41,483 bases of DNA from a virus (IMGVR_UViG_2565956725_000003:1-41483), one strand, 5' to 3'; shown: positions 3,317 through 41,483, counted from the stretch's first letter. Notes: generated by a model not told the origin, from the letters alone. A program made the numbers and translations.

Positions 3317-6073
3317 TTAGCTACTTTCAAGCATTGCAAGACGTGATTCTATTTTTTCGATTCTTCTACGCAAATAAGCTGACTCAAGCCATAAACACTG
3401 GTCAGTACGGATACCCCACCTATTTCCAGCCTTGCAAACCAGAGTTCGCTCTTCTGTTTCGTATTCTTCTTCCATCTCAATTTCGACGCCATCCACAACT
3501 TTAGTGATCATCCTTACCGCCATCACTGGCGCGTATTTATCATCCCATTCATCGTAACAGAGAAGGCCAAATCTGGTTCCATCAATCCCATGCGCGAGGA
3601 AAGTGTCTCTCACTTGTTGTGCTATAACACCAAAATGCCAGCGGGCACCATCTCCCTTTTCCCTGACGGCATCAAGCCAGCGAAAAGCTACAATCCTGAT
3701 ATCTCCCCATGCATCCAGAATTGCATCACCTTCATAACCACGAGACATATACAAGCTGAGCTCACTTGTACTAATCGGTTCACTTTTTTCTCTACCATCT
3801 GATGTGTTTATCGAACCGTTCGCAGAATAAACCTGTGCCCATCTAAATGATGGTGCACCAAGAGATTTGCTGTTATCAATAATTGGTGAAAAATTACCTT
3901 TAATGGCAATATTTCCAGAGTCGCCGAATATATTAATAACTGCAGAGTCATCACCATGGTTTTTTACGCTTAAGTTTCTTGATGAAATATTTATATCTTT
4001 GTTATATCCACTAACATTAATCCATCTTTTACCATCAATGTGATACCCGTAAATATTTCCGTCTGATTGTTCGTCAGGTGACTCTCTAAGAACAATAGCA
4101 TCTGCTCCAGACGACCATTGTATTTTTGTATCTGTAGGCCTCCAGTTCTTTATAATGAACGAACCATCAGTAAACTCCGTTTTTATTTGTCTATTGTCTA
4201 CAAATGCGTCTCTTGGTTTAAACTCACTTGTGTTAACGCTGCTCTGAAGATCAGAAGCAAAAAATCTAAGATTTCCTGTATAACCCTGAGTCTCGGTCTG
4301 GTTATACGCAATCATAATTCCATTTTCAAACTCAGATGATGTTATTTTAACATCACGGCAATCACCAAAAATGCAATTTCCTTTATCAAATGTTGTTTGA
4401 GCTTTGAATTTATCAAACCTTAAATTACGAACAGGGAAACCATCAACCTCTAATGCAAAGGATGCAGGAAGGCCAAAGTATTCTGATGGCTTACCTGATG
4501 TATGATCAAGAGTAGTGGCTACTGTATTCTCAAAAACAGTCCCGCTAAAATTATTACCAATTGACGGAAACCTGATTACACTTATTGTACCTTGTATTTC
4601 AGGAGAAATACCAGATAGTGTGATGTTAGCTCCATCAAATGATGCATCTGAATACGTATATACTGATTCACTGCCAGCAATTTTAAACTGTTTAACTGAA
4701 GTTATTCTCATCGACTTTTTATGTTTAAATGTCACTGAGCTTTCAGTATTACTTACAAGATCAATCTGAGGGCTATTCCTTATCGCGATCCCTGACTGGA
4801 CATAAACGTTATTAAAGTGCGTTTTTTCAGGATTTCCCTTCATTGAAAGGCTCCCGTCATTTTCTGTCAGTAGTAGTCCTTTTACCCTCCAATAGCCGAC
4901 AATCTGTACGTTATCAATAACTGAATCACAGCTATCGTATACATGCAACCCTATATCCCAGTCATCACCCAATGAATAAGAATCAGGGTTATTGTATCCT
5001 TCAATACCATTTTTACTTACCATTATTCTCAGGTTGCGTAACTGTGATGCCCTGTTGATACTAACAGCTACGCTCATGGCTTTTGGTGTAGCAGGAGTAA
5101 CACCTACAGAATCTTCATTTGTAAACTCAGTGAACTTACAAGATATCCCTTCAACAATTTTAACTGGTCTTTCATTAGAGATGTTAAAAAAATATTTGTT
5201 TTTTTCTCCATCACCAGTAAATACAAGATGGGTTCCTTTACTCCAACTTTTTAATAATCTTTCAGGCGCTGGTCTATATGTATCCCAATAATCAATGCCA
5301 TCACCAATTAAAGACACTCCAGGAGGCACATCTATGTTCTTAGAAATCATCCATTTACCTGCAGGTATTCTAACGACACTTGCACCAGAATTTATCGCAT
5401 TAATTAACCATTCAGACGCATCAACTTCAAAATTTAATGCAGCATATCTTTGCTCAAACGGAACAAAATCAAGAGCGTTAACGTTATCCCGCATCTTATC
5501 CTGGAACGTTCGGTATACTGCTCCAGAACCATACTGAATAAACCAACCAAAACCACCAACAACTCCGGCGATTGCAGCATCAACATAATTGCGCATTGAT
5601 CGATTATTTACAGCATCCTGCTCAAGTGATGGATCTGCAAGGTTAGAAATTTTGTTTTGCTTTGCATCGTAATATTTTGCAAGCAAAGATGGTTTCATCA
5701 ATGCACGTCTGAACCATCCAAAACATTGCTGGATCAGCATCGTCAGATAGTCAAAGGCATCTTCATGCACCTCGGGGAAAAATTTTCCCTGATTACGAAG
5801 ATCAGTCTCCTGCACCACATCAAGCACACGATCTATCGTAATTCGCCATCCAGCAGCAAGCGGCGACGGAAGAACAACAGAACCGCCACTATAAGTGCCC
5901 GCCCCTGTTACCGTATAACCGGTATCCAGAACCAATTCTGTTACGTTCCCGTTCAGGTCAGACACCTGAACAACCAGGTCGGATTTTTTGAAAATACGGA
6001 AGGTATACGGAAATGATGTCGTAGCTCCGTTACCTGTGTATTCGTTGTGGTCAACTTCGGTTGAGACCGTCAT
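3317..6073 (-). CDS. tailspike/tail fibre with C-terminal intramolecular chaperone (peptidase S74-like)
   Basis: 918 aa; N-terminus resembles the T7 gp17-type adaptor domain; AT-rich central part; C-terminal roughly 150 aa resembles self-cleaving chaperone domains of endosialidase-type fibres; RBS GGAG. Confidence 0.8.
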   Translation of the reverse strand: MTVSTEVDHNEYTGNGATTSFPYTFRIFKKSDLVVQVSDLNGNVTELVLDTGYTVTGAGTYSGGSVVLPSPLAAGWRITIDRVLDVVQETDLRNQGKFFPEVHEDAFDYLTMLIQQCFGWFRRALMKPSLLAKYYDAKQNKISNLADPSLEQDAVNNRSMRNYVDAAIAGVVGGFGWFIQYGSGAVYRTFQDKMRDNVNALDFVPFEQRYAALNFEVDASEWLINAINSGASVVRIPAGKWMISKNIDVPPGVSLIGDGIDYWDTYRPAPERLLKSWSKGTHLVFTGDGEKNKYFFNISNERPVKIVEGISCKFTEFTNEDSVGVTPATPKAMSVAVSINRASQLRNLRIMVSKNGIEGYNNPDSYSLGDDWDIGLHVYDSCDSVIDNVQIVGYWRVKGLLLTENDGSLSMKGNPEKTHFNNVYVQSGIAIRNSPQIDLVSNTESSVTFKHKKSMRITSVKQFKIAGSESVYTYSDASFDGANITLSGISPEIQGTISVIRFPSIGNNFSGTVFENTVATTLDHTSGKPSEYFGLPASFALEVDGFPVRNLRFDKFKAQTTFDKGNCIFGDCRDVKITSSEFENGIMIAYNQTETQGYTGNLRFFASDLQSSVNTSEFKPRDAFVDNRQIKTEFTDGSFIIKNWRPTDTKIQWSSGADAIVLRESPDEQSDGNIYGYHIDGKRWINVSGYNKDINISSRNLSVKNHGDDSAVINIFGDSGNIAIKGNFSPIIDNSKSLGAPSFRWAQVYSANGSINTSDGREKSEPISTSELSLYMSRGYEGDAILDAWGDIRIVAFRWLDAVREKGDGARWHFGVIAQQVRDTFLAHGIDGTRFGLLCYDEWDDKYAPVMAVRMITKVVDGVEIEMEEEYETEERTLVCKAGNRWGIRTDQCLWLESAYLRRRIEKIESRLAMLESS

Positions 6074-6176: not shown

Positions 6177-6193
6177 ATTACCTTTCGGGTAAT
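6177..6193. promoter_or_regulatory. operator-like 17-bp palindrome ATTACC-N5-GGTAAT (copy 1)
   Basis: ATTACCTTTCGGGTAAT, perfect 6+6 inverted repeat, in the divergent region between the tailspike start and the SOS-box ORF. Confidence 0.6.
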
Positions 6194-6229: not shown

Positions 6230-6249
6230 TACTGTATAAATATACAGTT
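6230..6249 (+). promoter_or_regulatory. LexA (SOS) box inside a sigma70-like promoter
   Basis: TACTGTATAAATATACAGTT matches the CTGT-N8-ACAG consensus; sits between TTGATA (6226-6231) and TATTAC (6249-6254), 20 nt upstream of the ORF at 6269. Confidence 0.8.
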
Positions 6250-6268
6250 ATTACATGGAGAAGATAAG

Positions 6269-6526
6269 ATGCAGCAGTATCACTATCCACTGGAAGACGG
6301 ATTTACCGAAAGGATTCACACGCCGGGAGGCGTCAGGTCACTGGTGGAGGGATCGCACTTGATGAAATTACTCCGGGATCTCGATAAGGATGGATTTAAT
6401 GTCGATGGCCCACTTGCCGAACTGACTGCACTGATTAACTACGTCACCAGCTCACAGATGTCTATGCAGGATCTGCAAACACATCTCGACTATTGTGCCG
6501 AACAATTACGAAAGCAAACCAGATAA
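6269..6526 (+). CDS. small SOS-controlled protein, paralogue of the Bro protein C-terminal domain (candidate antirepressor)
   Basis: 85 aa, RBS GGAG; aligns with the last ~65 aa of the 6840..7532 product (shared IH-P-GV, LM-LL, DG-V-G, AELT, QTH-Y). Confidence 0.7.
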   Translation: MQQYHYPLEDGFTERIHTPGGVRSLVEGSHLMKLLRDLDKDGFNVDGPLAELTALINYVTSSQMSMQDLQTHLDYCAEQLRKQTR

Positions 6527-6556: not shown

Positions 6557-6573
6557 TTTACCTTTGCGGTAAA
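6557..6573. promoter_or_regulatory. operator-like palindrome (copy 2) nested in a larger inverted repeat
   Basis: TTTACCTTTGCGGTAAA, flanked symmetrically by GGAGTGC (6545-6551) and GCACTCC (6582-6588). Confidence 0.55.
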
Positions 6574-6686: not shown

Positions 6687-6839
6687 TGTGTAAAGCGCAC
6701 CTATTCTATGGTGGGCTGTGTGGGGGCACCGAAAGGTGCGCCGGGTTCCTTTGTAGCCGGTAAGACCAACTCTGCACAGTTCACCACCATCTGATTGGTC
6801 TCAGCGGTGGTGATTAACCTAACTACAAAGGTGATCGCC

Positions 6840-7532
6840 ATGAATACCAAACCTTCCATCTTTTCCTTTGAGTCATCCTGCCAGATCCGTATGTTCATGA
6901 TTGACGGAGAACCTTGGTTTGTCACCAAAGATGTGTGCAATGCTTTGAATATTGATGTTACACAAGCGAGAAAACTTGATAAAAAAGGCTGGAACAAAAA
7001 GGGGCTGTATTCAATACAGACCCCTGGTGGAATACAAGAACTATCCATCGTTTCAGAATCAGGTCTCTACATCCTTATTCTGCGTTGCAAAGAGGCAATG
7101 ACAGAGGGAACGAGAGCATTCAGATTTCTTGAATGGGTTACAGGTGAGGTTCTTCCTCAGATCCGCCGCACCGGAAGTTACATTAAAAACTCGCTCCCGC
7201 AGGAAGAACGCATAAAGATGGTTGCCGACCAGGTAGCCAACGCCACGGCGTCAGCAGTAATGCAGGCGATGAAGATAGAGAACAAAACCTACAGTGCCCC
7301 GCTGAAGCCCGGCTACCGCAGCCTGATTCACTCGCCGTCTGGTGTTCTCGGCCTGACGGAGAACTCACTGCTGATGAATCTGCTGAACCAGTTACAGGAA
7401 GACGGGCACGACGTATCGGGCGCGGCGGCGGAACTGACCACCATGTTCTGCTACATCGTCGGTGTGAGTAAATGCCTGCGTGATATCCAGACCCACGCGG
7501 AATACATCAACGACAAGGCAGGGGTCTTCTGA
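6840..7532 (+). CDS. Bro-N domain protein (antirepressor-like)
   Basis: N-terminal Bro-N signature (FSFESSCQIRMFMIDGEPWFVTKDVCNALNI ... GLYILILRC ... FLEWVTGEVLPQIRRTGSY); start at ATG 6840 with RBS AAAGGTGA. Confidence 0.85.
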   Translation: MNTKPSIFSFESSCQIRMFMIDGEPWFVTKDVCNALNIDVTQARKLDKKGWNKKGLYSIQTPGGIQELSIVSESGLYILILRCKEAMTEGTRAFRFLEWVTGEVLPQIRRTGSYIKNSLPQEERIKMVADQVANATASAVMQAMKIENKTYSAPLKPGYRSLIHSPSGVLGLTENSLLMNLLNQLQEDGHDVSGAAAELTTMFCYIVGVSKCLRDIQTHAEYINDKAGVF

Positions 7533-7597: not shown

Positions 7598-7614
7598 ATT
7601 ACCCCAAAGGTAAG
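7598..7614. promoter_or_regulatory. operator-like palindrome (copy 3)
   Basis: ATTACCCCAAAGGTAAG upstream of the two-gene cassette; further GTAAC-N13-GTTACC half-sites at 7626-7650. Confidence 0.55.
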
Positions 7615-19476: not shown

Positions 19477-20084
19477 CAGGACAACCTCGCAATGGTAAAC
19501 TCATCAACCGGTGGCTGTGGTTCCTGTGATTCATTCTGGCTATGCGAGCCAGCACTAAGAATCACGCGATTGTACATATTGAGGGCAAACGTACCGAGGT
19601 CTGCATTCCCAGTCAGCGCCATGTTAATAGCTGCCGCAAGACGCCAGGCCAACGCCTCCATAAAAATGGCATCAAACATGTTCACATCTGTAACGCGAGA
19701 GACATACTTGAGCCATGCCTGCGGCTGGTCTGTGTAGATCAACTTTCCTGTTCCGTTGGTGTCTGCACCAACTTCGTACTGAACGCGCATTGCTGCTGTT
19801 GGATTGCGTACACCAGGAAGCATAATTTCAGTAATGCGCAGACAATCGGACGGGTACTGATACGCATATTCCCAGTCAGGCGGTGGATTGCTCGTATCTG
19901 CAAGCGCCACGCGTTTGGTAGCAAAGTTCCAGTCAAAATCAGAAAGCACAGCATCACGGCAGGCCTCAAAGTGCAGCGAACATTCCCCCGCTTCCTTGCT
20001 GGCTTCCGTCAGGCTGTTAATGCTGCGGCTATTGCCAATATTGGACAGCGCACGATTACAGATCTCTACTACAGAGGCCATCAC
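19476..20084 (-). CDS. tail tubular protein A-like (adaptor/gatekeeper)
   Basis: 202 aa; N-terminal pattern resembles T7 gp11 as recalled. Confidence 0.55.
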   Translation of the reverse strand: MMASVVEICNRALSNIGNSRSINSLTEASKEAGECSLHFEACRDAVLSDFDWNFATKRVALADTSNPPPDWEYAYQYPSDCLRITEIMLPGVRNPTAAMRVQYEVGADTNGTGKLIYTDQPQAWLKYVSRVTDVNMFDAIFMEALAWRLAAAINMALTGNADLGTFALNMYNRVILSAGSHSQNESQEPQPPVDEFTIARLS

Positions 20085-25182: not shown

Positions 25183-25270
25183 ATCAATGACTCCGTACGC
25201 AATTAAATTATTACCAATTTAACCACATATGATTTATTTATCGTAGGTAGTTGACATTTAACGCACAAAT

Positions 25271-25287
25271 TATTACCTTTCAGGTAA
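25271..25287. promoter_or_regulatory. operator-like palindrome (copy 4)
   Basis: ATTACCTTTCAGGTAAC, 15 bp downstream of a TTGACA hexamer (25250-25255), upstream of the tRNA and of the portal operon. Confidence 0.55.
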
Positions 25288-25609
25288 CCAAAGAGTTCAT
25301 TCCGGTTACTAACCTGACTGGCTTGTCGTTAAATTGAACAGGTGTAGTGAGCTTTTATTTTGAGCAGTACGGCGTATGGCACATGCGCCGATAGCGGTCT
25401 GGATACGTTTAAGGGGCACCCTCCCTTGCTCGGGCAAACGAACCAGGTAGCCGGAATGTGCAAGTCGAGCGGTTTTATTCCGCGCACGGGGATTCACCAT
25501 CCCGGCGATTCGGTGTGACGCCTCGGAAGAGACGAGGGTACAACGATGAGAGCATTTATGGAGCCGCGACAAAGTGTGGCGCCTTAACAGGCTAAGTGCT
25601 CTCAGCGTT

Positions 25610-25686
25610 GTGGCATTAGCTCAGTTGGACAGAGCAACCGCCTTCTAAGCGGTTGGTCGCAGGTTCGAATCCTGCATGCCACGCCA
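25610..25686 (+). tRNA. tRNA-Arg (anticodon UCU), phage-encoded argU-like
   Basis: Hand-folded cloverleaf with 7-bp acceptor stem, D and T arms, anticodon loop CTTCTAA, discriminator G and encoded CCA; core resembles argU. Confidence 0.9.
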
Positions 25687-25729
25687 GAATCACGCCTAAG
25701 GACCGTGATGCCAGAAGTTCCAGGTGCTT

Positions 25730-25771
25730 GGCGGTGATGGTTTCCCTTGAGGGACTATCACCGCCCTTTTT
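25730..25771 (+). terminator. rho-independent terminator after the tRNA
   Basis: 9-bp stem GGCGGTGAT/ATCACCGCC followed by CTTTTT. Confidence 0.6.
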
Positions 25772-25849
25772 ACAGCAGGACGCCATTGCGATGACTTCAT
25801 GCTGTAAACCCGTACAGCCACGGAAGGCATAACTCATTGCTTCCAGTTC

Positions 25850-25873
25850 GCCCGGTTCGCCGGGCATTTTTTT
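25850..25873 (+). terminator. second terminator/attenuator hairpin
   Basis: GCCCGG-TTCG-CCGGGC followed by ATTTTTTT, just upstream of the RBS of the 25890 ORF. Confidence 0.55.
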
Positions 25874-25889
25874 AAGGTGAGATTAGACT

Positions 25890-26261
25890 ATGAGTGACAA
25901 AGACATTGAATCTGAAATTCAGGCTAAAGGTTTAGCCGCGCCGCGCGTTACGCCAGACCATATCGAGAGCATTATTGCTCAGGAGGCATATTTCACAGCA
26001 GAAGATGGTGCCTTTGGCGTAGCCATAAAAGCGAAACATACTGGCGGAGAGGTAAACTACCAGCCGCACGAATCACTTTCTCTGCTGACGTTCTGCGTCC
26101 TGGTGCTGCGCAACGGCTTCACCGTCACCGGAGAGAGCGCCTGTGCAAGCCCGGAAAACTTTGATGCAGAAATTGGTCGGAAGATTGCCCGACAGAATGC
26201 TGTAAACAAAATCTGGATGCTTGAAGGTTACTTGCTGAAGCAGAAGTTAAGCGAGCAATAA
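25890..26261 (+). CDS. hypothetical protein (moron with the tRNA)
   Basis: 123 aa, RBS AAGGTGAG; opposite strand to the flanking packaging and head genes; followed by a terminator. Confidence 0.6.
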   Translation: MSDKDIESEIQAKGLAAPRVTPDHIESIIAQEAYFTAEDGAFGVAIKAKHTGGEVNYQPHESLSLLTFCVLVLRNGFTVTGESACASPENFDAEIGRKIARQNAVNKIWMLEGYLLKQKLSEQ

Positions 26262-27827: not shown

Positions 27828-28420
27828 TGATTACCATCCTGACGTTCTTTGAGTCGCTTCCTGGCTGCTGCTATGCGATCAGCAATTGTCACATTCACAT
27901 TAACATCCAGACGTTCTTTGAACGCGTTGACATCAACATGCTTACCAATCAGCTCAAGGTTCTTCACCTTGTCAGGCCATTTAATTTTTTTGAGGATTGT
28001 CTCTATCGAATCCTCGTTCATGTTCATGATGGTCGATGACAGATCAAAGCCACTAAGCGTAGTGCGCCAGATTTTCGGCCACTCGCGGATTGGCTTAAGG
28101 CTCCCATCGTCGTTGAGGATGTCGATCACGTCCATCTGGTCGATCTCCACCAGGCGCATGAGAACGTAATCAGCACTGACGCGCATTCGTTTGTTGCGCT
28201 CTTCCATCAGCTCGGCAATCCGTTTTTGAATGCGTTCATCGCGCATCATGACACTGGCTTTAACTGCCGCTGTATTTGGGGAGAATCCTGCGTTAATCGC
28301 TGCCTGAGTCTGGTTTTCAGGCGTTTTGATGTATGACTGGCAATAAGCCTCCTGCATTGCTGTTAGTGGCTTAAATTGCGTTGATTTGCGTTTATAGGTT
28401 TTAGGTTCAGCAGGCATCAT
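27824..28420 (-). CDS. terminase small subunit
   Basis: About 198 aa from ATG 28420/28417; helix-turn-helix-like KPLTAMQEAYCQSYIKTP...TQAAINAGFS; the ORF-track N-terminal extension is rejected. Confidence 0.75.
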   Translation of the reverse strand: MMPAEPKTYKRKSTQFKPLTAMQEAYCQSYIKTPENQTQAAINAGFSPNTAAVKASVMMRDERIQKRIAELMEERNKRMRVSADYVLMRLVEIDQMDVIDILNDDGSLKPIREWPKIWRTTLSGFDLSSTIMNMNEDSIETILKKIKWPDKVKNLELIGKHVDVNAFKERLDVNVNVTIADRIAAARKRLKERQDGNQ

Positions 28421-28436
28421 AACCACCGTGGTAATA

Positions 28437-28453
28437 GTTACCGTTGTGGTAAT
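28437..28453. promoter_or_regulatory. operator-like palindrome (copy 5) just upstream of the terminase small subunit
   Basis: GTTACCGTTGTGGTAAT within a GGTAATAGT direct repeat, 17 bp from the start codon. Confidence 0.55.
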
Positions 28454-28494
28454 AGTAACATGCAAAATAAAGCCGCCATAGTTGGCGGCAGTAT

Positions 28495-28728
28495 TCAAAG
28501 TCCATCAAATTCATCGTAAAAACTCTCGTCAAGATACCCTTCCCATTTACCGCGAATGAAAATTACACCCTCGCCGCAATGGTGATGACTGTCGATAACT
28601 ATATCCCTCCTGGCGCAACCATACTTATGCATGAGAAATTTAACCTCTTTCGGAAAATTTGCTGAGTTATCTCTCATATCTTCAAGGTCGTAGCGTATTT
28701 TTGGCATAACACCTTCGTGACATGTCAC
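28495..28728 (-). CDS. hypothetical protein
   Basis: 77 aa, GTG start overlapping the upstream stop. Confidence 0.45.
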   Translation of the reverse strand: MTCHEGVMPKIRYDLEDMRDNSANFPKEVKFLMHKYGCARRDIVIDSHHHCGEGVIFIRGKWEGYLDESFYDEFDGL

Positions 28729-32100: not shown

Positions 32101-32102
32101 GA

Positions 32103-32119
32103 TTTACCTCTGAGGTAAT
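32103..32119. promoter_or_regulatory. operator-like palindrome (copy 6)
   Basis: TTTACCTCTGAGGTAAT overlapping the RBS/start of the 31756..32100 gene. Confidence 0.5.
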
Positions 32120-32164
32120 TAAAAACCACATAAGACATGAAATCAATAGAGTTTATAATATTTT

Positions 32165-32181
32165 GTTACCTAACAGGTAAT
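32165..32181. promoter_or_regulatory. operator-like palindrome (copy 7)
   Basis: GTTACCTAACAGGTAAT, 62 bp from copy 6, in the gap downstream of the P-like gene. Confidence 0.55.
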
Positions 32182-32217
32182 TATCGAGGCGTAAAAAAAT
32201 GCGCTATCGCGCTGGTA

Positions 32218-32994
32218 TTACTTGATAAATCCTGCCGCCTTTCCCCGCCTGTATTCCTCCATCAGCCACTGCGCCGGTGTTATTCCCCCAAGGGTGGCGG
32301 CGTTAGGCATGCACCCGAAACTTCGCCCTGGTGGATGGTAAACGTCTCTCCCTGTGTCCGGAGGTGTACTCATGGGCTCTGGCTTTGCCTGTATGCTGAT
32401 CACCGGATCGGGTATCTGCTGTCCGGAAGCCACCTTTTTCGCCCAATCATCGAGCAGCCTGCGCGCGTGTTTCTCAACCTCACTCTCGCTAAGCTGGCGC
32501 TGATACATTGCACGACGGGTATCACATACGACCCAGTACATAACCGGATGCCGCCACGGGAATCTTTCGGGACCACCAGGATATAAACTTTTTTCCTTGC
32601 TGTACCGGTGAAACTCCGCCATCACATCGTCAATGGTGACGCCAAGAACCATCTTGCTGTCTTTGCACCACTTGATGAATTGCCCTGGCGACGGCCAGAA
32701 CGGAGATTCACTGGCGCGGGCGTGGCGCATACCAGCGTTAACCTGTTCCATTGTAGTGATCCCATTCTCCAGAAACGCAAGCATCCATTGCTTACGGAAT
32801 TCATTAAGTTTGTTCTGCTCCCTTATGGTCGAAACGCTTGCAGGAAATGCAGCCTGTAACTGGACAAATAGTTCATTGAAAATTCTAGCAACCTGCTCCT
32901 TTTTGCCATTGCTGTCACGCCGCTCTTCATGCACAGCAACACCATGCTCACGTAAGCGATCGTACTCATTGAGAAGTTCTGGAGTTGATTTCAT
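32218..32994 (-). CDS. replication protein P-like (helicase loader)
   Basis: 258 aa; block FPASVSTIREQNKLNEFRKQWMLAFLENGITTMEQVNAGMRHAR...SPGQF aligns closely with lambda P as recalled. Confidence 0.8.
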   Translation of the reverse strand: MKSTPELLNEYDRLREHGVAVHEERRDSNGKKEQVARIFNELFVQLQAAFPASVSTIREQNKLNEFRKQWMLAFLENGITTMEQVNAGMRHARASESPFWPSPGQFIKWCKDSKMVLGVTIDDVMAEFHRYSKEKSLYPGGPERFPWRHPVMYWVVCDTRRAMYQRQLSESEVEKHARRLLDDWAKKVASGQQIPDPVISIQAKPEPMSTPPDTGRDVYHPPGRSFGCMPNAATLGGITPAQWLMEEYRRGKAAGFIK

Positions 32995-33796
32995 CCCACA
33001 CCCCTTCTATCCAGTCAGTGTTATTCCAGTCAAGCTCATCGCTTTTCCCGGCATTTTTTGATTTTCCCCTGATATGATTTACGTGCCTGGCGAATTTTTG
33101 TTCCCACTGAACCTGCGTGAACACTTTGCCCTCAGCCATCCAGTAATCCCGGAATGCAGCAAGTTCAGCAGGTGTAAATTCCGGTTCCGGCAGGGCCGTT
33201 CCCCACAGCGCAGCACGCCGCCGAAAATCTGGCGACGGTAGCCAGCCATCTGTCATCGGAAATTTCCCGATGGGTTCACTCAGGCCATCCAGAAATTCAG
33301 GTTCTGCCACCTGCAACGGCGTACTGTTCGCTTCACTGGTCGGAGCACCCTCGCGCACGTGCGCTATGTGTGGGGTTTTATATATATCTTCCTCTTCCTC
33401 TTCCTCTGGTAACTCCTTTTGTAACGCTGTTGGCGTTACTTTTTGCGTTACTCGTTTTCGATGCTCTGCCACTCTTCTATTCGTAAGTGCACGTTTTTTC
33501 GATGATTCTCCATTATGTCGCTCAAAGTTTGGAAGAATTAGTTTGCCGTCATGATAAGCAAGCCATCCGACGCTAATGAGGGCGTCAGCAAATCCTGTAA
33601 TAAAAGCGAGTCTATCAAGTACTCCTTTTGTAACGCTGCCAGCGTTACCGTCTATTGTTTGCTGGTCAGCCCATGCCCATATACGAACCAGCTTTCCAAG
33701 AACAGCATCTGGATCAATACCCAGAATTTCTGCTATCTGAAAAATTTCAGGTTTATCAGGAGTGATAACTTCAACCTTAATCCAGCTGCTTGCCAT
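32966..33796 (-). CDS. replication initiator (O-like)
   Basis: 276 aa from the second ATG (RBS AGAGGGG); acidic linker; C-terminal DnaT-like segment; ori-like palindromes lie inside the gene. Confidence 0.65.
   Translation of the reverse strand: MASSWIKVEVITPDKPEIFQIAEILGIDPDAVLGKLVRIWAWADQQTIDGNAGSVTKGVLDRLAFITGFADALISVGWLAYHDGKLILPNFERHNGESSKKRALTNRRVAEHRKRVTQKVTPTALQKELPEEEEEEDIYKTPHIAHVREGAPTSEANSTPLQVAEPEFLDGLSEPIGKFPMTDGWLPSPDFRRRAALWGTALPEPEFTPAELAAFRDYWMAEGKVFTQVQWEQKFARHVNHIRGKSKNAGKSDELDWNNTDWIEGVWDEINSRTSQ
33412..33648. repeat. ori-like iterons: two 19-bp palindromes GTAACGC-N5-GCGTTAC within an 18-bp direct repeat
   Basis: 33421-33439 and 33630-33648, each preceded by ACTCCTTTT; extra half-site GCGTTAC at 33445-33451; A+T tract 33376-33389; all inside the O-like gene linker. 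Confidence 0.55.
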
Positions 33797-33989
33797 AGGT
33801 TTCCCCTCTTGCACTCTTTAGTGCGCAAGCAAATTCATTACGATGGCGGTTGGCGCTATTCATTGCACATTCAACACATGTTCCGTTCAGAACATACCTT
33901 TCAGAGAGATGGCCGTGACGGCACCGCTTTCCTGTGAAATAGCGATTTAACCCGGCTTTTGCGGCCTCCATTCTGGTTACTATCTTCAA
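33777..33989 (-). CDS. small zinc-ribbon-like protein
   Basis: About 70 aa, start ambiguous (TTG 33989 or ATG 33971); CRHGH...CVEC motif; between the cro-like and O-like genes. Confidence 0.4.
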   Translation of the reverse strand: MKIVTRMEAAKAGLNRYFTGKRCRHGHLSERYVLNGTCVECAMNSANRHRNEFACALKSARGETYGKQLD

Positions 33990-34097
33990 TTTTTCCGCCC
34001 CTTTTTGTTATTGATATTGGCTATTTTGCACAATTGGAAAATTTGATCAACCAGATTTGGTTTTTTATTACCCTTAAGGTGCGAATAGATATGAAAA

Positions 34098-34115
34098 GAC
34101 CGCCGGATGGCGGTC
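34098..34115 (-). terminator. terminator-like hairpin downstream of the cro-like gene
   Basis: GACCGCC-GGAT-GGCGGTC; on the minus strand followed by TTTTCAT. Confidence 0.45.
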
Positions 34116-34137
34116 TACAGAGGGTTGTGGCTGGATA

Positions 34138-34368
34138 TCATGAGTAGAAGAAGTATGCCAGTTCTGCTTTTGAGCGCAGCCATTGTCTTGTTTTACAGGC
34201 TTTAAAAAGCCCATTCATCAATACTTTACCTGGCATTTTGCGCTTACCTGTTAAGTGAGTCTGGATATAGTGACTCGTCGTTCCGGCTTCCTGTGCGAAG
34301 GCTTCACGCTCATCCGGAGTAAGTGCAAGCCAGTGCTTTTTGAAATCGAAATGTCCGTTATCGCTCAT
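34138..34368 (-). CDS. Cro-like / YdaS-family HTH regulator
   Basis: 76 aa, divergent from the repressor gene across the operator-bearing intergenic region; HTH segment TSHYIQTHLTGKRKMPGKVL. Confidence 0.6.
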   Translation of the reverse strand: MSDNGHFDFKKHWLALTPDEREAFAQEAGTTSHYIQTHLTGKRKMPGKVLMNGLFKACKTRQWLRSKAELAYFFYS

Positions 34369-34434
34369 AGCTATTGCCTGATATTTATTTCAGATAATAA
34401 ATATTCACCCATAAGGTAACAAAAATCAAGGATA

Positions 34435-34451
34435 GTTACCTGTGGGGTGCA
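34435..34451. promoter_or_regulatory. operator-like site, imperfect (OR2-like)
   Basis: GTTACCTGTGGGGTGCA; left half conserved, right half GGTGC; tandem with copy 8. Confidence 0.45.
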
Positions 34452-34468
34452 TTTACCTGTTGGGTAAT
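34452..34468. promoter_or_regulatory. operator-like palindrome (copy 8, OR-like)
   Basis: TTTACCTGTTGGGTAAT in the 154-bp region between the divergent cro-like and repressor genes; GGTAAC half-site at 34415-34420. Confidence 0.65.
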
Positions 34469-34522
34469 ATTGCTTTAAATTGAATCATCTACTGATTCAT
34501 ATATGAGGCGATTTTCCAGAAA

Positions 34523-35107
34523 ATGAAAAGTATCCAGGACGTCCGCAGGCAAAATCTCAACGACTTGATCGACCGTGAATTCAATGGTGTTCAGACGCGG
34601 ATGGCAGAAAAACTTGGAACTCAGGCAAATCTGGTAAACCGCTGGGCTCTTGGCAAGAAGGTTATCGGCGACCAGGTTGCACGAAAAATTGAAGCTGCCG
34701 CCAATAAACCCCGTAACTGGCTTGATATTGATCGTTCGCTTTCTCAGGAGGGTTTTCAGCCTGTCGGCCCGAGCGATATAGGTCAGCTGGCGGCTCACAA
34801 CCTGGAACGCTGGATGAGCGAAAGCCGCGACCTTTCAACACAGGGAAAACTTCACCGCGCATCCGGCGTCGCCCAGGTGACAATCAGCCGCCTGTTAAAC
34901 AATGAGGTCAGCGTTTCCATTTCCACCCTGGAGAATGTTGCATCCGCATTCGGGCGTCACGGATATGAACTACTAATTCACCCGCACGACCCTGCGACTA
35001 TCAACTATGACCGCTCGCGCTACGCATTGTTACCCGAAGCCGAGAAAGCAAAGATCGAAAGTTACATTGAATTTGTCATCAACCAGAACGAAAAAAACAA
35101 ACAATAA
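34523..35107 (+). CDS. prophage repressor, dual HTH, no autocleavage domain
   Basis: 194 aa; two HTH-like segments (residues about 10-60 and 95-150); no S24 peptidase motifs; divergent from the cro-like gene; followed by a strong terminator. Confidence 0.7.
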   Translation: MKSIQDVRRQNLNDLIDREFNGVQTRMAEKLGTQANLVNRWALGKKVIGDQVARKIEAAANKPRNWLDIDRSLSQEGFQPVGPSDIGQLAAHNLERWMSESRDLSTQGKLHRASGVAQVTISRLLNNEVSVSISTLENVASAFGRHGYELLIHPHDPATINYDRSRYALLPEAEKAKIESYIEFVINQNEKNKQ

Positions 35108-35129
35108 AATCATATTTTTCAGTAAGTAA

Positions 35130-35152
35130 GCCGCCTTCTGGCGGCTTTTTTA
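35130..35152 (+). terminator. rho-independent terminator after the repressor gene
   Basis: GCCGCC-TTCT-GGCGGC followed by TTTTTTATT. Confidence 0.8.
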
Positions 35153-35163
35153 TTGCCTGTTCG

Positions 35164-35180
35164 ATTACCTGATAGGTAAT
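35164..35180. promoter_or_regulatory. operator-like palindrome (copy 9, OL-like)
   Basis: ATTACCTGATAGGTAAT, perfect, 19 bp upstream of TTGACA at 35199-35204. Confidence 0.65.
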
Positions 35181-35198
35181 TTTTTTAACTCATATCTA

Positions 35199-35227
35199 TT
35201 GACATCAAACCAAATACGCATAATTAT
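35199..35227 (+). promoter_or_regulatory. candidate early promoter (pL-like)
   Basis: TTGACA, 16-17 bp spacer, TAATTA/AATTAT; the -10 overlaps palindrome copy 10. Confidence 0.45.
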
Positions 35228-35242
35228 TACCTCAACGGTAAC
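35226..35242. promoter_or_regulatory. operator-like palindrome (copy 10)
   Basis: ATTACCTCAACGGTAAC overlapping the candidate -10; extra GGTAAC half-site at 35250-35255. Confidence 0.6.
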
Positions 35243-35260
35243 AGACCGAGGTAACAAGTT

Positions 35261-35422
35261 ATGCAGTGGAAAATCATCAACGGTTGGTACTGCGTTACTG
35301 CATGCGGATTCATGAGCTGGAAGTTCCGCACCTTACAGGAAGGCATTAAGTGGGCTTTCGTCAGCAAAGAAGCTCGCGATGTGGCCAACGATAACGAGAT
35401 ATGGGAGCAGGTTAGCAAATGA
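35261..35422 (+). CDS. small Trp-rich protein, first gene of the early operon (not in ORF track)
   Basis: 53 aa, RBS GAGGT, ATGA overlap with the next gene; preferred over the antisense 63-aa track ORF. Confidence 0.45.
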   Translation: MQWKIINGWYCVTACGFMSWKFRTLQEGIKWAFVSKEARDVANDNEIWEQVSK

Positions 35423-36453
35423 GTGAATTATCAATCATCGAAATCACACCAGATATGGCACCAAGAATTTACGTTGAAAAAGGACTGGAAAAGTTTCTTC
35501 AGCAGATCCGTGAAGGTGTTAATGAAGTGCCTGACATTAGCACAGACAAAGGCAGAAAGCGCATTGCATCTCTGGCTGCGAAGGTTTCAAGAAGTAAAAC
35601 AGCGGTAGAAAAACCAGGACGTGATTATCTGAAACGCCTGAAAGAACAGCCGAAAGTAGTTGAAGCAGAGTTACGACGCTTCGTAACCGAATGCGATCGG
35701 CTTCGTGATGAAGTACGCCGCCCACTCACCGAGTGGGAAAATGCTGAGAAATTACGCACCGAAGCACTACAACAACGCCTGACAAATTTGCGAGCACTAG
35801 CTGACGTGATCGATCTCTCCGGAAACTACTTGCCATCAACTGATATTCAGGAACGAATTCAAGAGGCTAAATCAGTAGCACTTGATGATAGTTGGCAGGA
35901 GTACGCAGCAGAAGCTGGAGTAGCCAAGGATTCAACCATCCAGAAACTGGAAGAATCACTCGCAGTAGCTCAAAAACGCGAGCATGAAGCCGCTGAGCTG
36001 GAGCGACTTCGCAAAGAAGCGGAGGAAAAAGCGCGCATTGAGCGAGAAGAGAATATTCGCCGGGAAGCTGCTGAACAGGCCAGGCTCGAAGCTGAACAAA
36101 AAGCGAAATCTGAAATTGAGGCTGCGGCACGCCTGGCGGCGGAAGAGAAAGCACGTGCTGAAGTAGCGGAACGTCAGCGAATTGAAGCAGAGCAGCGTGC
36201 ACAACGCGAAAAAGAAGAAGCCGTTGCCGAGGAACGCCGACGCCAAGAGGCGGCAGAAAAAGCCCGCCTTGACGAACAGAAGCGTATCGTCGACGAAGAA
36301 GCGCGCCGAGCTGCGGATAAAGAGCATCGCCGTACCGTTAACCGCAGAGTAATCGAAGATCTGATAGCCCAAGGCATTCCCGAAGAATTCGCGCAGAAAG
36401 CAATGTTGGCTATCGCTGGCGGCAAAGTGCAGGACGCGTATATCAAATATTGA
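35419..36453 (+). CDS. coiled-coil E/R/K/A-rich protein, hypothetical
   Basis: 344 aa with a long charged repetitive helical segment. Confidence 0.55.
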   Translation: MSELSIIEITPDMAPRIYVEKGLEKFLQQIREGVNEVPDISTDKGRKRIASLAAKVSRSKTAVEKPGRDYLKRLKEQPKVVEAELRRFVTECDRLRDEVRRPLTEWENAEKLRTEALQQRLTNLRALADVIDLSGNYLPSTDIQERIQEAKSVALDDSWQEYAAEAGVAKDSTIQKLEESLAVAQKREHEAAELERLRKEAEEKARIEREENIRREAAEQARLEAEQKAKSEIEAAARLAAEEKARAEVAERQRIEAEQRAQREKEEAVAEERRRQEAAEKARLDEQKRIVDEEARRAADKEHRRTVNRRVIEDLIAQGIPEEFAQKAMLAIAGGKVQDAYIKY

Positions 36454-36454
36454 G

Positions 36455-36760
36455 GTGGGTATGAACGTTAATCAGCAGAAAAATCTTCAAAAAATCATGC
36501 TGGCATTCGACAAAGACTACCGCCTGTCAGAACAGCTATATGACCGACAAGTTGAACTGATTGAGAGCATCCGACTTCATCAACTGTCCTCAACTTTCGA
36601 CGTTGTAACAGGCAAAGGCGTTCGTCAGGAAGTGCTGGAGGCTGCTAAAGACAGCCCTGAGTTCGAAGAACTGATGGATGCCTACCGGCGCGAGGCAATG
36701 GCAATTATCGCCCGCTGGGATCTGGCGGATCGGATTGATGGGCAGAGGGACGCGGCATGA
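36455..36760 (+). CDS. hypothetical protein
   Basis: 101 aa, RBS GAGGTGGG, coupled to the downstream exonuclease gene. Confidence 0.5.
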   Translation: MGMNVNQQKNLQKIMLAFDKDYRLSEQLYDRQVELIESIRLHQLSSTFDVVTGKGVRQEVLEAAKDSPEFEELMDAYRREAMAIIARWDLADRIDGQRDAA

Positions 36761-37656
36761 TGCAGAACGCTGGAATCATGGATAGAACAAAATACATCGG
36801 AGGAAGCGATGTTGCAGGGATTCTTGGAATTAGCCCATGGCGCACCCCGCTTGAGGTTTATCTGGATAAGGTCCAGTCACGTGTCAAACCAGTAGACCCA
36901 AGCAAGCAGAAAGTTTTCACGCGTGGCCAGCGTATGGAGCCATACGTAATAGACCTGCTTTCTGAGGAAACAGGGATGGAAATCGTTCATCGCGGAAACC
37001 GCTATATCCACCGTGATTACGATTTTATTGCAGCTGAGATCGATGCAGAAGCAGCGTCAGGCGAGAACATTGAGATCAAAACAGTTAGTCCGTTCAAAGC
37101 CAAAGAATGGGGAGAAATCCAGACAGATGCAATTCCTGTGCATTACACGGCCCAGGCCATGCACGGGTTGATGGTTACAAACAAACAGGTATGCGTTTTC
37201 GGTGTGCTTATCGGTGGCGACGACTTCCGAATCTATCGGGTTGAGCGTGATGAAGAAACTATCCAGGCGATCTTAGAAAAAGAAATCGCTTTCTGGGACC
37301 GAGTGAAAAATCTTAACCCGCCGGAAGCTACCAGCGTAAGCGATGTATCGCTGATGTTTGAGAAAGATGCCGGGACAAGTATCGAGGCTGACGGAAAGGC
37401 ACTCGCACTATTCAACGATCTACGAGACATGAAGTCACGCAGAAAATCACTGGAAGAAGAAATAGCTATATCAGAAGAGAAGCTGAAGATGTACATGCAA
37501 GAGCACTCAGTCCTGACCCTGGACGGAAAGCCGCTCTGCACATGGAAATCTCAGATCAGCAACAGATTCGACCAGAAGCTATTCCAGTCAGTACACCCTG
37601 AGTTATTCGAAAAATTCAAAACAACAACGACACAACGCGTCTTCAGAATGAAGTAA
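36757..37656 (+). CDS. YqaJ-type viral recombinase exonuclease
   Basis: 299 aa; N-terminal hallmark YIGGSDVAGILGISPWRTPLEVY; immediately upstream of recT. Confidence 0.8.
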   Translation: MMQNAGIMDRTKYIGGSDVAGILGISPWRTPLEVYLDKVQSRVKPVDPSKQKVFTRGQRMEPYVIDLLSEETGMEIVHRGNRYIHRDYDFIAAEIDAEAASGENIEIKTVSPFKAKEWGEIQTDAIPVHYTAQAMHGLMVTNKQVCVFGVLIGGDDFRIYRVERDEETIQAILEKEIAFWDRVKNLNPPEATSVSDVSLMFEKDAGTSIEADGKALALFNDLRDMKSRRKSLEEEIAISEEKLKMYMQEHSVLTLDGKPLCTWKSQISNRFDQKLFQSVHPELFEKFKTTTTQRVFRMK

Positions 37657-37665
37657 GGAGAAAAA

Positions 37666-38688
37666 ATGTCTATCAATGCACTTAAGGCAGCGGCTACCGG
37701 TAACCAAGTTGCACATCATAATGAGAAACCAACAACTCTGGCCGGACTTCTGGCAGACCCAAAAATTAAAGCTCAGATGGCTTTGGCACTTCCAAAGCAC
37801 ATGACAGCAGACCGTCTGGCGCGCATAGCAACCACAGAGATCCGAAAGGTTCCAAAACTTGCATCATGCGACCAAGCCAGCTTCCTGGGGGCAATCATGC
37901 AATGTGCCCAATTGGGTCTTGAACCAGGCGGAGCTCTTGGACACGCTTACCTGATACCGTTCGACAAACGCCAGAAAGTAAATGGAAGATGGGAAACCGT
38001 ATCTACAGAAGCACAGCTGATTATCGGCTATCGCGGAATGATTGACCTTGCCCGCCGCTCTGGGCAGATCCTGAGTATCTCGGCTCGTACCGTACATACA
38101 AACGACAAATTCAGCTACTCATACGGCCTGGAAGAAACGCTCGAGCATTTACCTTGCGAAACAGGTGACCGCGGAGAATTAACGCACGTTTACGCCGTTG
38201 CACGACTGAAAGATGGCGGAGTCCAATTTGAAGTTATGAGCCGGGCAGACGTTGAGAAAGTTCGTGCACTGAGCAAAGCCGGTAGCAGTGGCCCATGGGT
38301 TGATCACTTCGATGAGATGGCTAAAAAAACAGTAATTCGCCGACTGTTCAAATATCTTCCTGTTTCTATTGAAATGCAGAAGGCTGTTGTTATGGATGAG
38401 CGCGCTGAAGCTGGACTTAGCCAAGATAACGCAGCTGTTATCACTGGTGAATATTCCGTAGTTGACGATGAGCGTCAACACCTGTCGCCAATTTCAGATT
38501 CAGAACGAGAAGAAGCTCGAGAATATATCATCGCGATACTTAATAGCCTGGATCCATCTGCTGAAGATGCAAAAACGATGTTCAAGCGCGCTGAAAATGA
38601 GATTAACACCATGGCTGAAAAGCTCGGTGATGAATATCACCAAAAATTCATGATGACGCTTAACGATATGCGTCCAGAATTCGAGTAA
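37666..38688 (+). CDS. recT: RecT-family single-strand annealing protein
   Basis: 340 aa; long blocks near-identical to Rac RecT as recalled (RIATTEIRKVP, LGLEPGGALGHAYLIPF, LIIGYRGMIDLARRSGQI, THVYAVARLKDGG, MAKKTVIRRLFKYLPVSIEMQ). Confidence 0.9.
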   Translation: MSINALKAAATGNQVAHHNEKPTTLAGLLADPKIKAQMALALPKHMTADRLARIATTEIRKVPKLASCDQASFLGAIMQCAQLGLEPGGALGHAYLIPFDKRQKVNGRWETVSTEAQLIIGYRGMIDLARRSGQILSISARTVHTNDKFSYSYGLEETLEHLPCETGDRGELTHVYAVARLKDGGVQFEVMSRADVEKVRALSKAGSSGPWVDHFDEMAKKTVIRRLFKYLPVSIEMQKAVVMDERAEAGLSQDNAAVITGEYSVVDDERQHLSPISDSEREEAREYIIAILNSLDPSAEDAKTMFKRAENEINTMAEKLGDEYHQKFMMTLNDMRPEFE

Positions 38689-40232: not shown

Positions 40233-41483
40233 TTATTCCCCCGCCATCCACTTCTCAAACTTCGACGGGGAGAACGGAATCAGATCCGTATGCTCCCCGT
40301 TAATCCAGGAATCAATCATATCGGCCCACTGCTGCAACATGTAGGCGCGCTGTCTGGCGTATTCCGCTTTGTTATATACGGCGCGCACACCTTTCTGCTC
40401 ATGTGCCAGAGCCTTTTCAATCCAGTCTGAAGGATAACCAGCCTCATGCAACAACGTACTGGCTGTACGGCGCATATCGTGTACGGTGAAGCCCTGAATA
40501 TGCTCACCATCTTCATTTATTATTTTCACCGTTCTGTCGATCAGAGAGTTCAGCGCGGCATTAGATAATGGCTTCCGGAAATTGTAACGCCCAGGAACAA
40601 GATATTCACTTCCACCAGCGCACATCTGCAACCCAACCAATATATCCTGTGCCTGTTTAGGCAGGTAAATAACGTGCGCCCGGCTTCCCTTCATGCGGTC
40701 TGAAGGAATTGTCCATGTCCATTTTTTAAAATCTATTTCATCCCACGTTGCATTGGTGAATTCGCCTTTACGAACCATAGTGATAAGCACCAGCTTTAAA
40801 GCCATTTTCATAGTGCCCATAGCACCAATGGCATCCAGCGTGCGGAAGAACAGGCCAATTTCTTCTGGTGTCAGTGTTCGCTCTCGTGGTTTAAATATGG
40901 CGATAGACGAAGGTTTAATGTCAGCCGCAGGATTAAACAAACCATGACCACGGTCATTGGCGTGACGGTATACGCTGCTGATGATCTCCCTGGCCTGTAC
41001 TGCTGTTGCCCGACCACCGCGTTCGACAATCCGGTCACACAAATCACGAACCATCGATGTGGTAATTTCAGCCATCATTTTGTTGCCAAGAACCGGAAGT
41101 ATGTCACGGTCGATCACCGCCTGCTTCATTGCGCGGGTACTGTCAGCCAGGATGACGTGTTTCATATAACTGTCGGTATGTACCGCAAACGTCTCGGCAC
41201 CACGAATCTTTTTGATACCGTCACGTTTAGCCGCAGCCGGCGACTGGCCTGCTTTAAGCAGCTTCTTTGCAGCAATCAGTTCTTCTCGCGCTTCTGCCAG
41301 GCTGATACCGTCACGCCCATACTGCCCGATTACCAGTGTTTCGCGGCGACCGTTGATACGGTAGTCATAGCGAAACGAGACCGTGCCTGACGTAAGCACA
41401 GCTACATACAGCCCGTCACGATCGGAGACCTTATACAGTTTGTCCTGCGGCTTGAGGTTTTTTAATTTTGTATCGGTAAGCAC
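40233..41483 (-). CDS. int: tyrosine integrase (P4/CP4-57-like), 5' end at window edge
   Basis: 416 aa; arm-binding N-terminus LTDTKLKNLKPQDKLYKVSDRDGLYVAV; C-terminal catalytic region with HDMRRT and RAVYNKAEY; first codon at the edge is GTG so the true start may lie just outside. Confidence 0.9.
   Translation of the reverse strand: MLTDTKLKNLKPQDKLYKVSDRDGLYVAVLTSGTVSFRYDYRINGRRETLVIGQYGRDGISLAEAREELIAAKKLLKAGQSPAAAKRDGIKKIRGAETFAVHTDSYMKHVILADSTRAMKQAVIDRDILPVLGNKMMAEITTSMVRDLCDRIVERGGRATAVQAREIISSVYRHANDRGHGLFNPAADIKPSSIAIFKPRERTLTPEEIGLFFRTLDAIGAMGTMKMALKLVLITMVRKGEFTNATWDEIDFKKWTWTIPSDRMKGSRAHVIYLPKQAQDILVGLQMCAGGSEYLVPGRYNFRKPLSNAALNSLIDRTVKIINEDGEHIQGFTVHDMRRTASTLLHEAGYPSDWIEKALAHEQKGVRAVYNKAEYARQRAYMLQQWADMIDSWINGEHTDLIPFSPSKFEKWMAGE

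Follow-up and report, generated by a model that had tools for sequence, protein, structure and literature searches.

The analysed window (IMGVR_UViG_2565956725_000003:1-41483, the whole stretch of 41,483 nt) shares 97-98% DNA identity with Escherichia phages phiv142-3, vB_EcoP_ZX5, TL-2011b and phiV10 and, judged by this relationship, is an epsilon15/phiV10-type Escherichia coli prophage, belonging to the epsilon15-like podoviruses of the genus Uetakevirus. The region considered here (35130-35260) follows the repressor gene rep and had been described, in a reading of the sequence alone, as the control region of the early operon. Downstream of rep a Rho-independent terminator is followed by a palindromic site (site A), a T7 tract, a -35 and a -10 hexamer, a second palindromic site (site B) and the ribosome-binding site (RBS) of a 53-aa open reading frame (ORF), the coordinates of which are collected in Table 1. 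The terminator, the TTGACA hexamer, both inverted repeats and the 53-aa ORF with its RBS were all found where the sequence-only reading had put them. The 53-aa ORF matches phrog_898 (E = 4e-38), and a 344-aa ORF, a 101-aa ORF, an exonuclease gene and the RecT gene follow it on the same strand. The results presented below indicate that this region very probably comprises the early promoter of an epsilon15/phiV10-like prophage together with two operators predicted to bind the Rep repressor of the phage.

Table 1. Features of the early promoter module and of related loci in the window; positions relative to the start refer to the predicted transcription start at ~35234.
Feature	Coordinates	Strand	Relative to predicted start	Description
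rep	34523-35107	+		194 aa, ends TAA; homologue of SPC32H Rep
Terminator of rep transcript, Rho-independent	35128-35151	+	end about -83	hairpin AAGCCGCC-TTCT-GGCGGCTT (35128-35147), 8-bp stem, 4-nt loop, then T-run
Site A, upstream operator (predicted)	35164-35180 (core 35165-35179)		-70 to -54 (centre about -62)	ATTACCTGATAGGTAAT; ATTACC-TGATA-GGTAAT, perfect 7+3+7 palindrome
T7 tract	35180-35186	+	about -54 to -48	directly 3' of site A; T82-T85 of the six-phage alignment invariant
-35 hexamer	35199-35204	+	-35 to -30	TTGACA; predicted early (pL-like) promoter
-10 hexamer	35222-35227	+	-12 to -7	AATTAT; 17-nt spacer from -35
Site B, promoter-proximal operator (predicted)	35226-35242 (core 35227-35241)		-8 to +9	ATTACCTCAACGGTAAC; ATTACC-TCAAC-GGTAAC
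Predicted transcription start	~35234	+		7 nt past the -10 hexamer
RBS and 53-aa ORF	35248-35422	+		GAGG 35248-35251, ATG 35261; first early-operon gene, phiV10p39 / epsilon15 gp37
76-aa Cro-like regulator	34138-34368	-		divergent from rep; phiV10p41 / epsilon15 gp39
cro-like/rep operator cluster	34405-34467			34405-34419 (one mismatch), 34436-34450 (degenerate right arm), 34453-34467 (exact)
Second paired module	32104-32180	-		site 32166-32180, 19 nt, TTGATT, 17 nt, TTTAAT, site 32104-32118, ATG 32100
terS doublet	28420-28434, 28438-28452			one mismatch and exact, respectively; 18 bp apart, directly upstream of terS start 28417 (minus strand)
Site in terminase-portal gap	25273-25287			covers -10 of plus-strand promoter 25251-25279 (TTGACA/17/TACCTT)
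LexA box and ant	6230-6526	+		LexA box TACTGTATAAATATACAGTT 6230-6249 (CTGT-N8-ACAG 6232-6247); ant 6269-6526
Site beside ant	6178-6192			between tail-fibre gene and ant; epsilon15 counterpart 19895-19911 annotated repressor-binding
Site upstream of Bro-N ORF	6558-6572			upstream of Bro-N ORF with Ant-like C-terminus
Site downstream of Bro-N ORF	7599-7613			downstream of the Bro-N/Ant-like ORF

The terminator was detected by a terminator scan, and its predicted RNA fold (-21.1 kcal/mol) is considerably more stable than that of shuffled sequences (z = -6.7). The phiV10 record annotates the equivalent rep terminator, and terminators are the only such features annotated there in the region; operator annotation is absent from this record and from the lineage of the window. 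A search of Rfam with 33800-35700 gave sub-threshold matches only, which picked up the terminator hairpin, and no known RNA element. The terminator is separated from site A by 12 nt, and the T7 tract adjoining this site may serve as an UP-element or bend the DNA intrinsically. With a score of 10/12, the combination TTGACA/17/AATTAT ranks above every other promoter-like site that the promoter scan returned for 33900-35600. A minus-strand match, TTGATG/18/AAAAAT (8/12), is weak and was not counted as a feature. The distance between the centres of sites A and B, formerly given as about 62 bp, is exactly 62 bp, and the proposed overlap of the second site with the candidate -10 is confirmed, as the site B core starts with the final T of AATTAT. 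The description of both palindromes as perfect holds for site A, a perfect 17-mer, and fails for site B, which is mismatched at positions 1/17 and 7/11 and is perfect only as TTACC-N5-GGTAA. Moreover, only a minority of the population set described below has the perfect 17-mer at site A, G35171 and A35174 each being present in 8/72 distinct sequences. Therefore, the real unit is a 5+5+5 motif.

This motif is strongly over-represented in the window. TTACC-N5-GGTAA occurs at ten exact sites in the 41.5 kb (starting at 6178, 6558, 7599, 25273, 28438, 32104, 32166, 34453, 35165 and 35227), against 0.04 expected from base composition. When one mismatch was allowed, 13 sites were counted against 0.73 in dinucleotide shuffles; a total of 13 was not attained in any of the 100 shuffles. 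In an unbiased survey of every 5-mer palindrome (spacer 0-11 nt) in the window and five related genomes, TTACC-N5-GGTAA ranked first, with 9-11 copies, and the next unrelated palindrome had 3-4. In the annotated genome of phiv142-3, in which 10.3% of the DNA is intergenic, all ten syntenic sites are intergenic (P ~1e-10). Several sites lie over or beside predicted promoter elements, and some lie beside terminators and not at obvious promoters. The symmetrised logos can be written as aTTACC-nnWnn-GGTAAt, the central base being A or T in 104/106 half-oriented sites. Between immunity classes the sites differ in spacer composition only, which is A/T-rich in the epsilon15 class and mixed in the window.

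The arrangement of the motif at the early promoter is conserved as well. The regions downstream of rep were aligned for six phages representing four immunity classes, namely the window, phiV10, Tyrion, Klebsiella phage BUCT711, epsilon15 and SPC32H. The invariant blocks are the TTACC/GGTAA arms of sites A and B, the block CTATTGAC containing the -35 and the ATTAT fused to site B that forms the -10, and the rest of the module is ~50% conserved. The comparison was extended to 12 lineages from seven genera by prophages of Superficieibacter, Erwinia, Klebsiella, Citrobacter and Scandinavium. The order site A, 19-20 nt, TTGAC(A/T), 21-22 nt, site B is intact in 12/12 lineages. Nine of them space the two sites by 62 bp, two by 63 bp and one by 61 bp, the 1-bp changes being tolerated in Klebsiella and Scandinavium. 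The Scandinavium region (2140-2215), with the 61-bp spacing, carries an additional site with one mismatch, TAACCATTTTGGTAA, in the interval from the -35 to the -10, which indicates that the module tolerates added operators. In the epsilon15 class (epsilon15, SPC32H and Citrobacter), and apparently in the Klebsiella phage, the leader is longer and holds a third site 76 bp further on, which is absent in the window, phiV10 and Tyrion. In Tyrion a minus-strand coding sequence (gp39, 4132-4344) is annotated over the early promoter, the operators and the start of the 53-aa gene; this is probably a mis-call.

The possibility that the motif has no regulatory role was also considered. It could be a site for a host factor, a restriction/modification target or a chance repeat, since the phage has methylase genes and the 5-N5-5 layout bears a superficial likeness to the bipartite sequences recognised by Type I systems. 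These candidates were ruled out on account of the over-representation of the sites, which are not avoided, of their intergenic-only location, several of them at predicted promoter elements, and of their constant placement with respect to the -35 and -10. The conservation of the motif across seven host genera argues in the same direction, and an explanation of this kind is highly improbable.

Constraint on the two sites was also visible at the population level. A scan of viral contigs yielded 80 near-identical Rep loci, too alike to inform on distant covariation, and the set used here for polymorphism comprises 71 distinct IMG/VR variants (Rep 99% identical); allele counts refer to 72 distinct sequences. 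At a minor-allele count of at least 2, polymorphism among the variants affects 0 of the 20 arm positions, versus 31 of the 133 other positions in 35108-35260. The spacer positions vary at 5/10, and a hypervariable stretch of 8 nt precedes site A. Variation is essentially absent from the terminator stem, and the terminator loop (35136-35139) is polymorphic. Insertions or deletions between sites A and B were not found in any of the 71 variants, and the -35 hexamer has one singleton variant among the 72 sequences.

The protein expected to act on these sites is encoded immediately upstream. Rep matches PDB 5D50_A over residues 1-190 of 194 (E = 4e-42) and the C-terminal fragment 5D4Z over residues 89-190 (E = 4e-20). 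SPC32H Rep is thus the nearest protein of solved structure. These structures are said to come from work on the lysis-lysogeny switch formed by Rep and Ant of Salmonella phage SPC32H, reportedly described by Kim and Ryu in 2013 (J Virol 87:11775) and by Kim et al. in 2016 (PNAS 113:E2480; PDB 5D50, 5D4Z). The Pfam search assigned to Rep a YdaS/Cro-like helix-turn-helix (HTH) domain at 21-61 and HTH_3 at 106-147; only HTH families were returned, and no S24 peptidase domain. The predicted layout comprises an HTH domain for DNA binding at the N-terminus, an HTH_3-like dimerisation domain in the middle and, at the C-terminus, a domain for tetramerisation and Ant binding. The same scheme (DNA-binding domain, middle dimerisation domain, C-terminal tetramerisation) is given for SPC32H Rep in a passage of a paper that classes it with Rco (PMC9986798). 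Rep identity across the four immunity classes is 43-78%, with 69 invariant alignment columns, and the Rep of the window is 42-43% identical to that of epsilon15 and SPC32H. The segment NLVNRW (residues 36-41, within the N-terminal recognition region) is invariant in all classes, which is the likely reason why the same operator motif is kept at such a low overall identity.

The other components of the switch are present too. An 85-aa ORF (6269-6523) matches the anti-repressor protein 5D50_E (E = 4e-47), and its product aligns closely with SPC32H Ant, unlike Rep (42% identical). The LexA box in front of it sits between TTGATA and TATTAC, and control of ant by LexA was reportedly described by Kim and Ryu in 2013. 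The 76-aa protein encoded divergently from rep falls in phrog_35, 'transcriptional repressor' (E = 6e-13). The homology of Rep and Ant, the LexA box and the Cro-like gene together indicate that the window carries the known Rep/Ant switch.

Further support for the early-promoter and operator reading is provided by the annotation of epsilon15. Its curated GenBank record (AY150271.2) holds seven 'protein_bind: repressor' features with ATTACC-N5-GGTAAT sequences, located upstream of terS, upstream of the portal block, beside the Ant homologue gp19, upstream of a post-replication gene and, three of them, between the repressor gene and gp37. The orthologues of site A (32616-32632) and site B (32554-32570) are among the annotated features, and the window sites are syntenic with the annotated positions. 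Between the repressor gene and gp39 of epsilon15 two exact copies and one degenerate copy (33341-33372) are unannotated. The proposal that the palindromes are repressor operators placed upstream of and over a sigma-70 early promoter thus gains support from comparative footprints, from the constancy of the arms and from this annotation. Given the annotation of the orthologues in epsilon15 and the earlier work on Rep/Ant of SPC32H, the feature is already described in close relatives and is ordinary for a temperate phage; in the lineage of the window it is unannotated. A full-text literature search for the operator sequences, which did not cover the primary epsilon15 and SPC32H papers, gave no match. 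For ZX5, whose control region is 98% identical to that of the window, the repressor and anti-repressor affect the lytic/lysogenic balance; repressor action at 'PL' is only postulated, and operators are not mapped in that study (PMC9782041).

Some points weigh against this interpretation. The repressor sites of epsilon15 are record annotation, which may be experimental or predicted, and in the phage studied here the binding of Rep and the start site are predictions from sequence comparison. Moreover, neither the motif nor the recognition helix varies within the genus, so that the genus offers no true covariation by which Rep could be linked to the motif. The genome-contig scan yielded six informative species and five distant homologues that share only the DNA-binding domain, have other recognition helices and lack the motif; this is consistent with a link between helix and motif and is not a real covariation test. 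Finally, the Cro-like protein may use the same sites. If these were mainly or also its targets, it would damp early transcription during lytic growth, and the assignment of the protein to a Cro/repressor-type PHROG, its divergence from rep across a three-site cluster and the operator sharing established for lambdoid phages (lambda Cro/CI) would fit such a role. The epsilon15 record, however, assigns the sites to the repressor, and it is the invariant recognition helix of Rep that tracks the motif, so we regard this alternative as improbable. Binding by both proteins is compatible with Rep as the repressor of the early promoter, and binding by Cro alone is unlikely.

Based on homology with SPC32H and on the epsilon15 annotation, the following course of events is proposed as the best-supported model for Rep at the early promoter. 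In the lysogen, the N-terminal HTH domains with the NLVNRW helix would bind the TTACC half-sites, and Rep on site B (about -8 to +9) would block open-complex formation by RNA polymerase. The terminator would keep rep transcription out of the early operon. Upon DNA damage LexA would be cleaved, Ant would be made from its LexA-boxed promoter and would break the Rep tetramer, and the early promoter would then fire. According to a passage of one paper, Rep binds palindromic DNA as a tetramer in which the DNA-binding domains pair between different dimers, giving two units per tetramer, and the tetramer of Ant breaks that of Rep down into dimers (PMC9638917).

What site A does is less evident. The reported tetramer with two DNA-binding units, the conserved spacing and the presence of a second cassette of identical geometry suggest that one Rep tetramer may bridge sites A and B, and the promoter would then lie within a loop of about 5.9, or roughly six, helical turns. 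Such a loop would explain why a spacing of 61-63 bp is kept in all lineages and at the second promoter, and we consider its chance to fall just short of even. It is not rated higher because the other pairs of sites, at 17-18 bp (cro-rep and terS) and 76 bp, have no common helical phase with 62 bp; the kept spacing could also reflect promoter geometry together with a site A fixed beside the T-tract. Site B alone may instead repress the same promoter with the same Rep, site A serving as an independent roadblock or insulator, as a block to contact of the RNA polymerase alpha subunit with the UP-like T-tract, or as a second, non-cooperative site. Consistent with this, site A adjoins the conserved T-tract (about -54 to -48) and lies 12 nt past the terminator, junctions of a terminator with a site recur at 32101-32220 and upstream of terS, as suits a role at operon boundaries, one-bp shifts of the spacing are tolerated, and the other pairs have no phase in common with 62 bp. 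Repression without a loop does not readily account, however, for the reported tetramer with its two units, for a spacing that has escaped larger indels in 12 lineages despite only ~50% conservation of the sequence in between, or for the recurrence of 62 bp at the second promoter. It is a real possibility to which we give somewhat less than an even chance.

The second promoter with paired sites lies on the minus strand and precedes a DUF1064/resolvase-like gene located after the replication genes. In this module (32101-32220) a terminator is followed, after 11 nt, by the first site. The 62-bp spacing is kept in all six genomes, and the junction of the -10 with the site (TTTAAT|TACC) is built as at the early promoter. 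The Shine-Dalgarno sequence GAGG of the DUF1064/resolvase-like gene falls inside an operator arm. In epsilon15 the distal site (35906-35922) is annotated as repressor-binding, and its partner at ~35969 is exact and unannotated. The intergenic region between the cro-like gene and rep (34369-34522) has three sites of graded quality in steps of 31 and 17 bp, an arrangement conserved in epsilon15. The weakest of them, 34405-34419, is overlapped by a predicted leftward promoter (TTGTTA/17/TATTAT, 34422-34394), and the exact one by a weak rightward promoter.

Upstream of terS (28418-28495, minus strand) a terminator GCCGCC-AACTAT-GGCGGC was found and no convincing sigma-70 promoter in that region; the doublet may act as a roadblock, or the terS promoter may need an activator. 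In the epsilon15 doublet the distal site (12-27) is annotated as repressor-binding, and the abutting proximal site is degenerate and unannotated. The counterpart of 25273-25287 in epsilon15 (2931-2947) is annotated as repressor-binding. Downstream of this site, and in the direction of the promoter that it overlaps, a tRNA-Arg(tct) gene (25610-25686, plus strand) and a 123-aa ORF (within 25251-26261) run antisense to the packaging and structural genes. The presence of this tRNA layout with its site also in epsilon15 suggests a repressor-controlled tRNA. The ORF at 6795-7532 has a Bro-N N-terminal domain and a C-terminus 41-44% identical to Ant, is flanked by the Rep-type sites at 6558 and 7599 and, from its sequence, may be a second antirepressor.

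With regard to the element as a whole, matches to the region were obtained in 561/5,426 complete E. coli genomes. The window genes were mapped by tblastn from phiv142-3, and the element is mosaic: the exonuclease and RecT genes (within 36757-38688) have no tblastn match to their phiv142-3 counterparts and have lengths as the epsilon15 genes, and the replication genes (32221-33989) are 45-81% identical to those of phiv142-3, against ~98% for the flanking DNA. The first 1.1 kb (1-1163) has no match to phiv142-3, and the integrase ORF overruns the right end (40233-41483); the window therefore represents either a permuted record or a prophage plus some of the DNA beside it.

What may be new in the present analysis is the geometry of a loop clamp and the operator identity across the genus, which would imply cross-immunity across hosts. 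These two readings, namely a single-tetramer clamp whose 61-63 bp cassette is used twice and a genus-wide cross-immunity at the level of DNA binding, are conceivable, and we lean slightly against them. If the clamp exists, repression by a terminator-operator-promoter-operator cassette would depend on loop geometry and go beyond simple occlusion. Likewise, if one operator core and one recognition helix are kept by all Uetakeviruses of E. coli, Salmonella, Klebsiella, Enterobacter, Citrobacter and Erwinia, with Rep at only ~42% identity, these phages would be cross-immune. Cross-induction through the highly conserved Ant would be possible too, unlike in lambdoid phages, whose operator-repressor pairs diversify immunity. 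In practical terms, known operators and a known early promoter help in annotating these prophages, the genes of which are now labelled 'hypothetical protein' or 'HTH protein' and the relatives of which carry O-antigen-modifying genes. They also help in predicting which prophages share immunity and in building reporters of SOS/Ant-dependent induction. The conserved 62-bp pair is a testable handle on repression by the structurally unusual Rep tetramer, and a passage of a 2023 paper describes repression by Rep as still poorly characterised (PMC9986798).

When compared with known systems, the window shares with phage P1 (C1) and with mycobacteriophage L5 (gp71 and its 'stoperators') the genome-wide scatter of one repressor motif, mostly at operon boundaries. 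The sites of L5 and P1 are asymmetric, and the stoperators of L5, ~30 in number, are orientation-biased. In contrast, the ~10-13 sites of the window are palindromic, show no such asymmetry with orientation bias and in several cases clearly overlap a -10 or +1. With lambda oL/pL the window has in common an early operon with recombination genes beside the repressor gene and directed away from it, and palindromic operators of ~17 bp over the promoter. The lambda oL region has three tandem operators ~24 bp apart in the promoter and engages in long-range octamer looping with oR, and lambda CI, which carries an S24 domain for autocleavage, is inactivated via RecA. Unlike lambda, the window has two sites 62 bp apart, a Rep without S24 and induction through a LexA-controlled antirepressor. 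The label 'classic pL-type design' is therefore apt for the position and role of the promoter and does not extend to the operator geometry or the type of repressor; the promoter is a functional analogue of lambda pL/oL, not a member of that design.

Repressors that loop DNA as tetramers, such as Rco of pLS20 (PMC9986798), LacI and PrgX of pCF10 (PMC9638917), share with Rep an N-terminal HTH, a C-terminal tetramerisation domain, predicted by homology for the Rep of the window, and a promoter bracketed by two separated operators. The two operators at a constrained distance that are typical of such systems were found here as well (61-63 bp, 12 lineages, two promoters per genome). Looping by Rco takes several tetramers, whereas for Rep, whose looping is itself a proposal, a single tetramer is said to suffice in a passage of one of these papers (PMC9638917), and the spacing is short (61-63 bp).

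The closest likeness is to the Rep/Ant system of SPC32H and epsilon15. A full-length Rep homologue, an Ant with a LexA box and the ATTACC-N5-GGTAAT core at syntenic positions are shared, and so is the module downstream of rep (site, 19 nt, TTGACA, 22 nt, site). These phages differ from the window in a Rep only 42-43% identical, in a longer leader with a third site and in A/T-rich spacers. Summarizing, with Rep, Ant, the LexA box and the syntenic operators all present, and with binding predicted from these similarities, the window belongs to the Uetakevirus Rep/Ant system.

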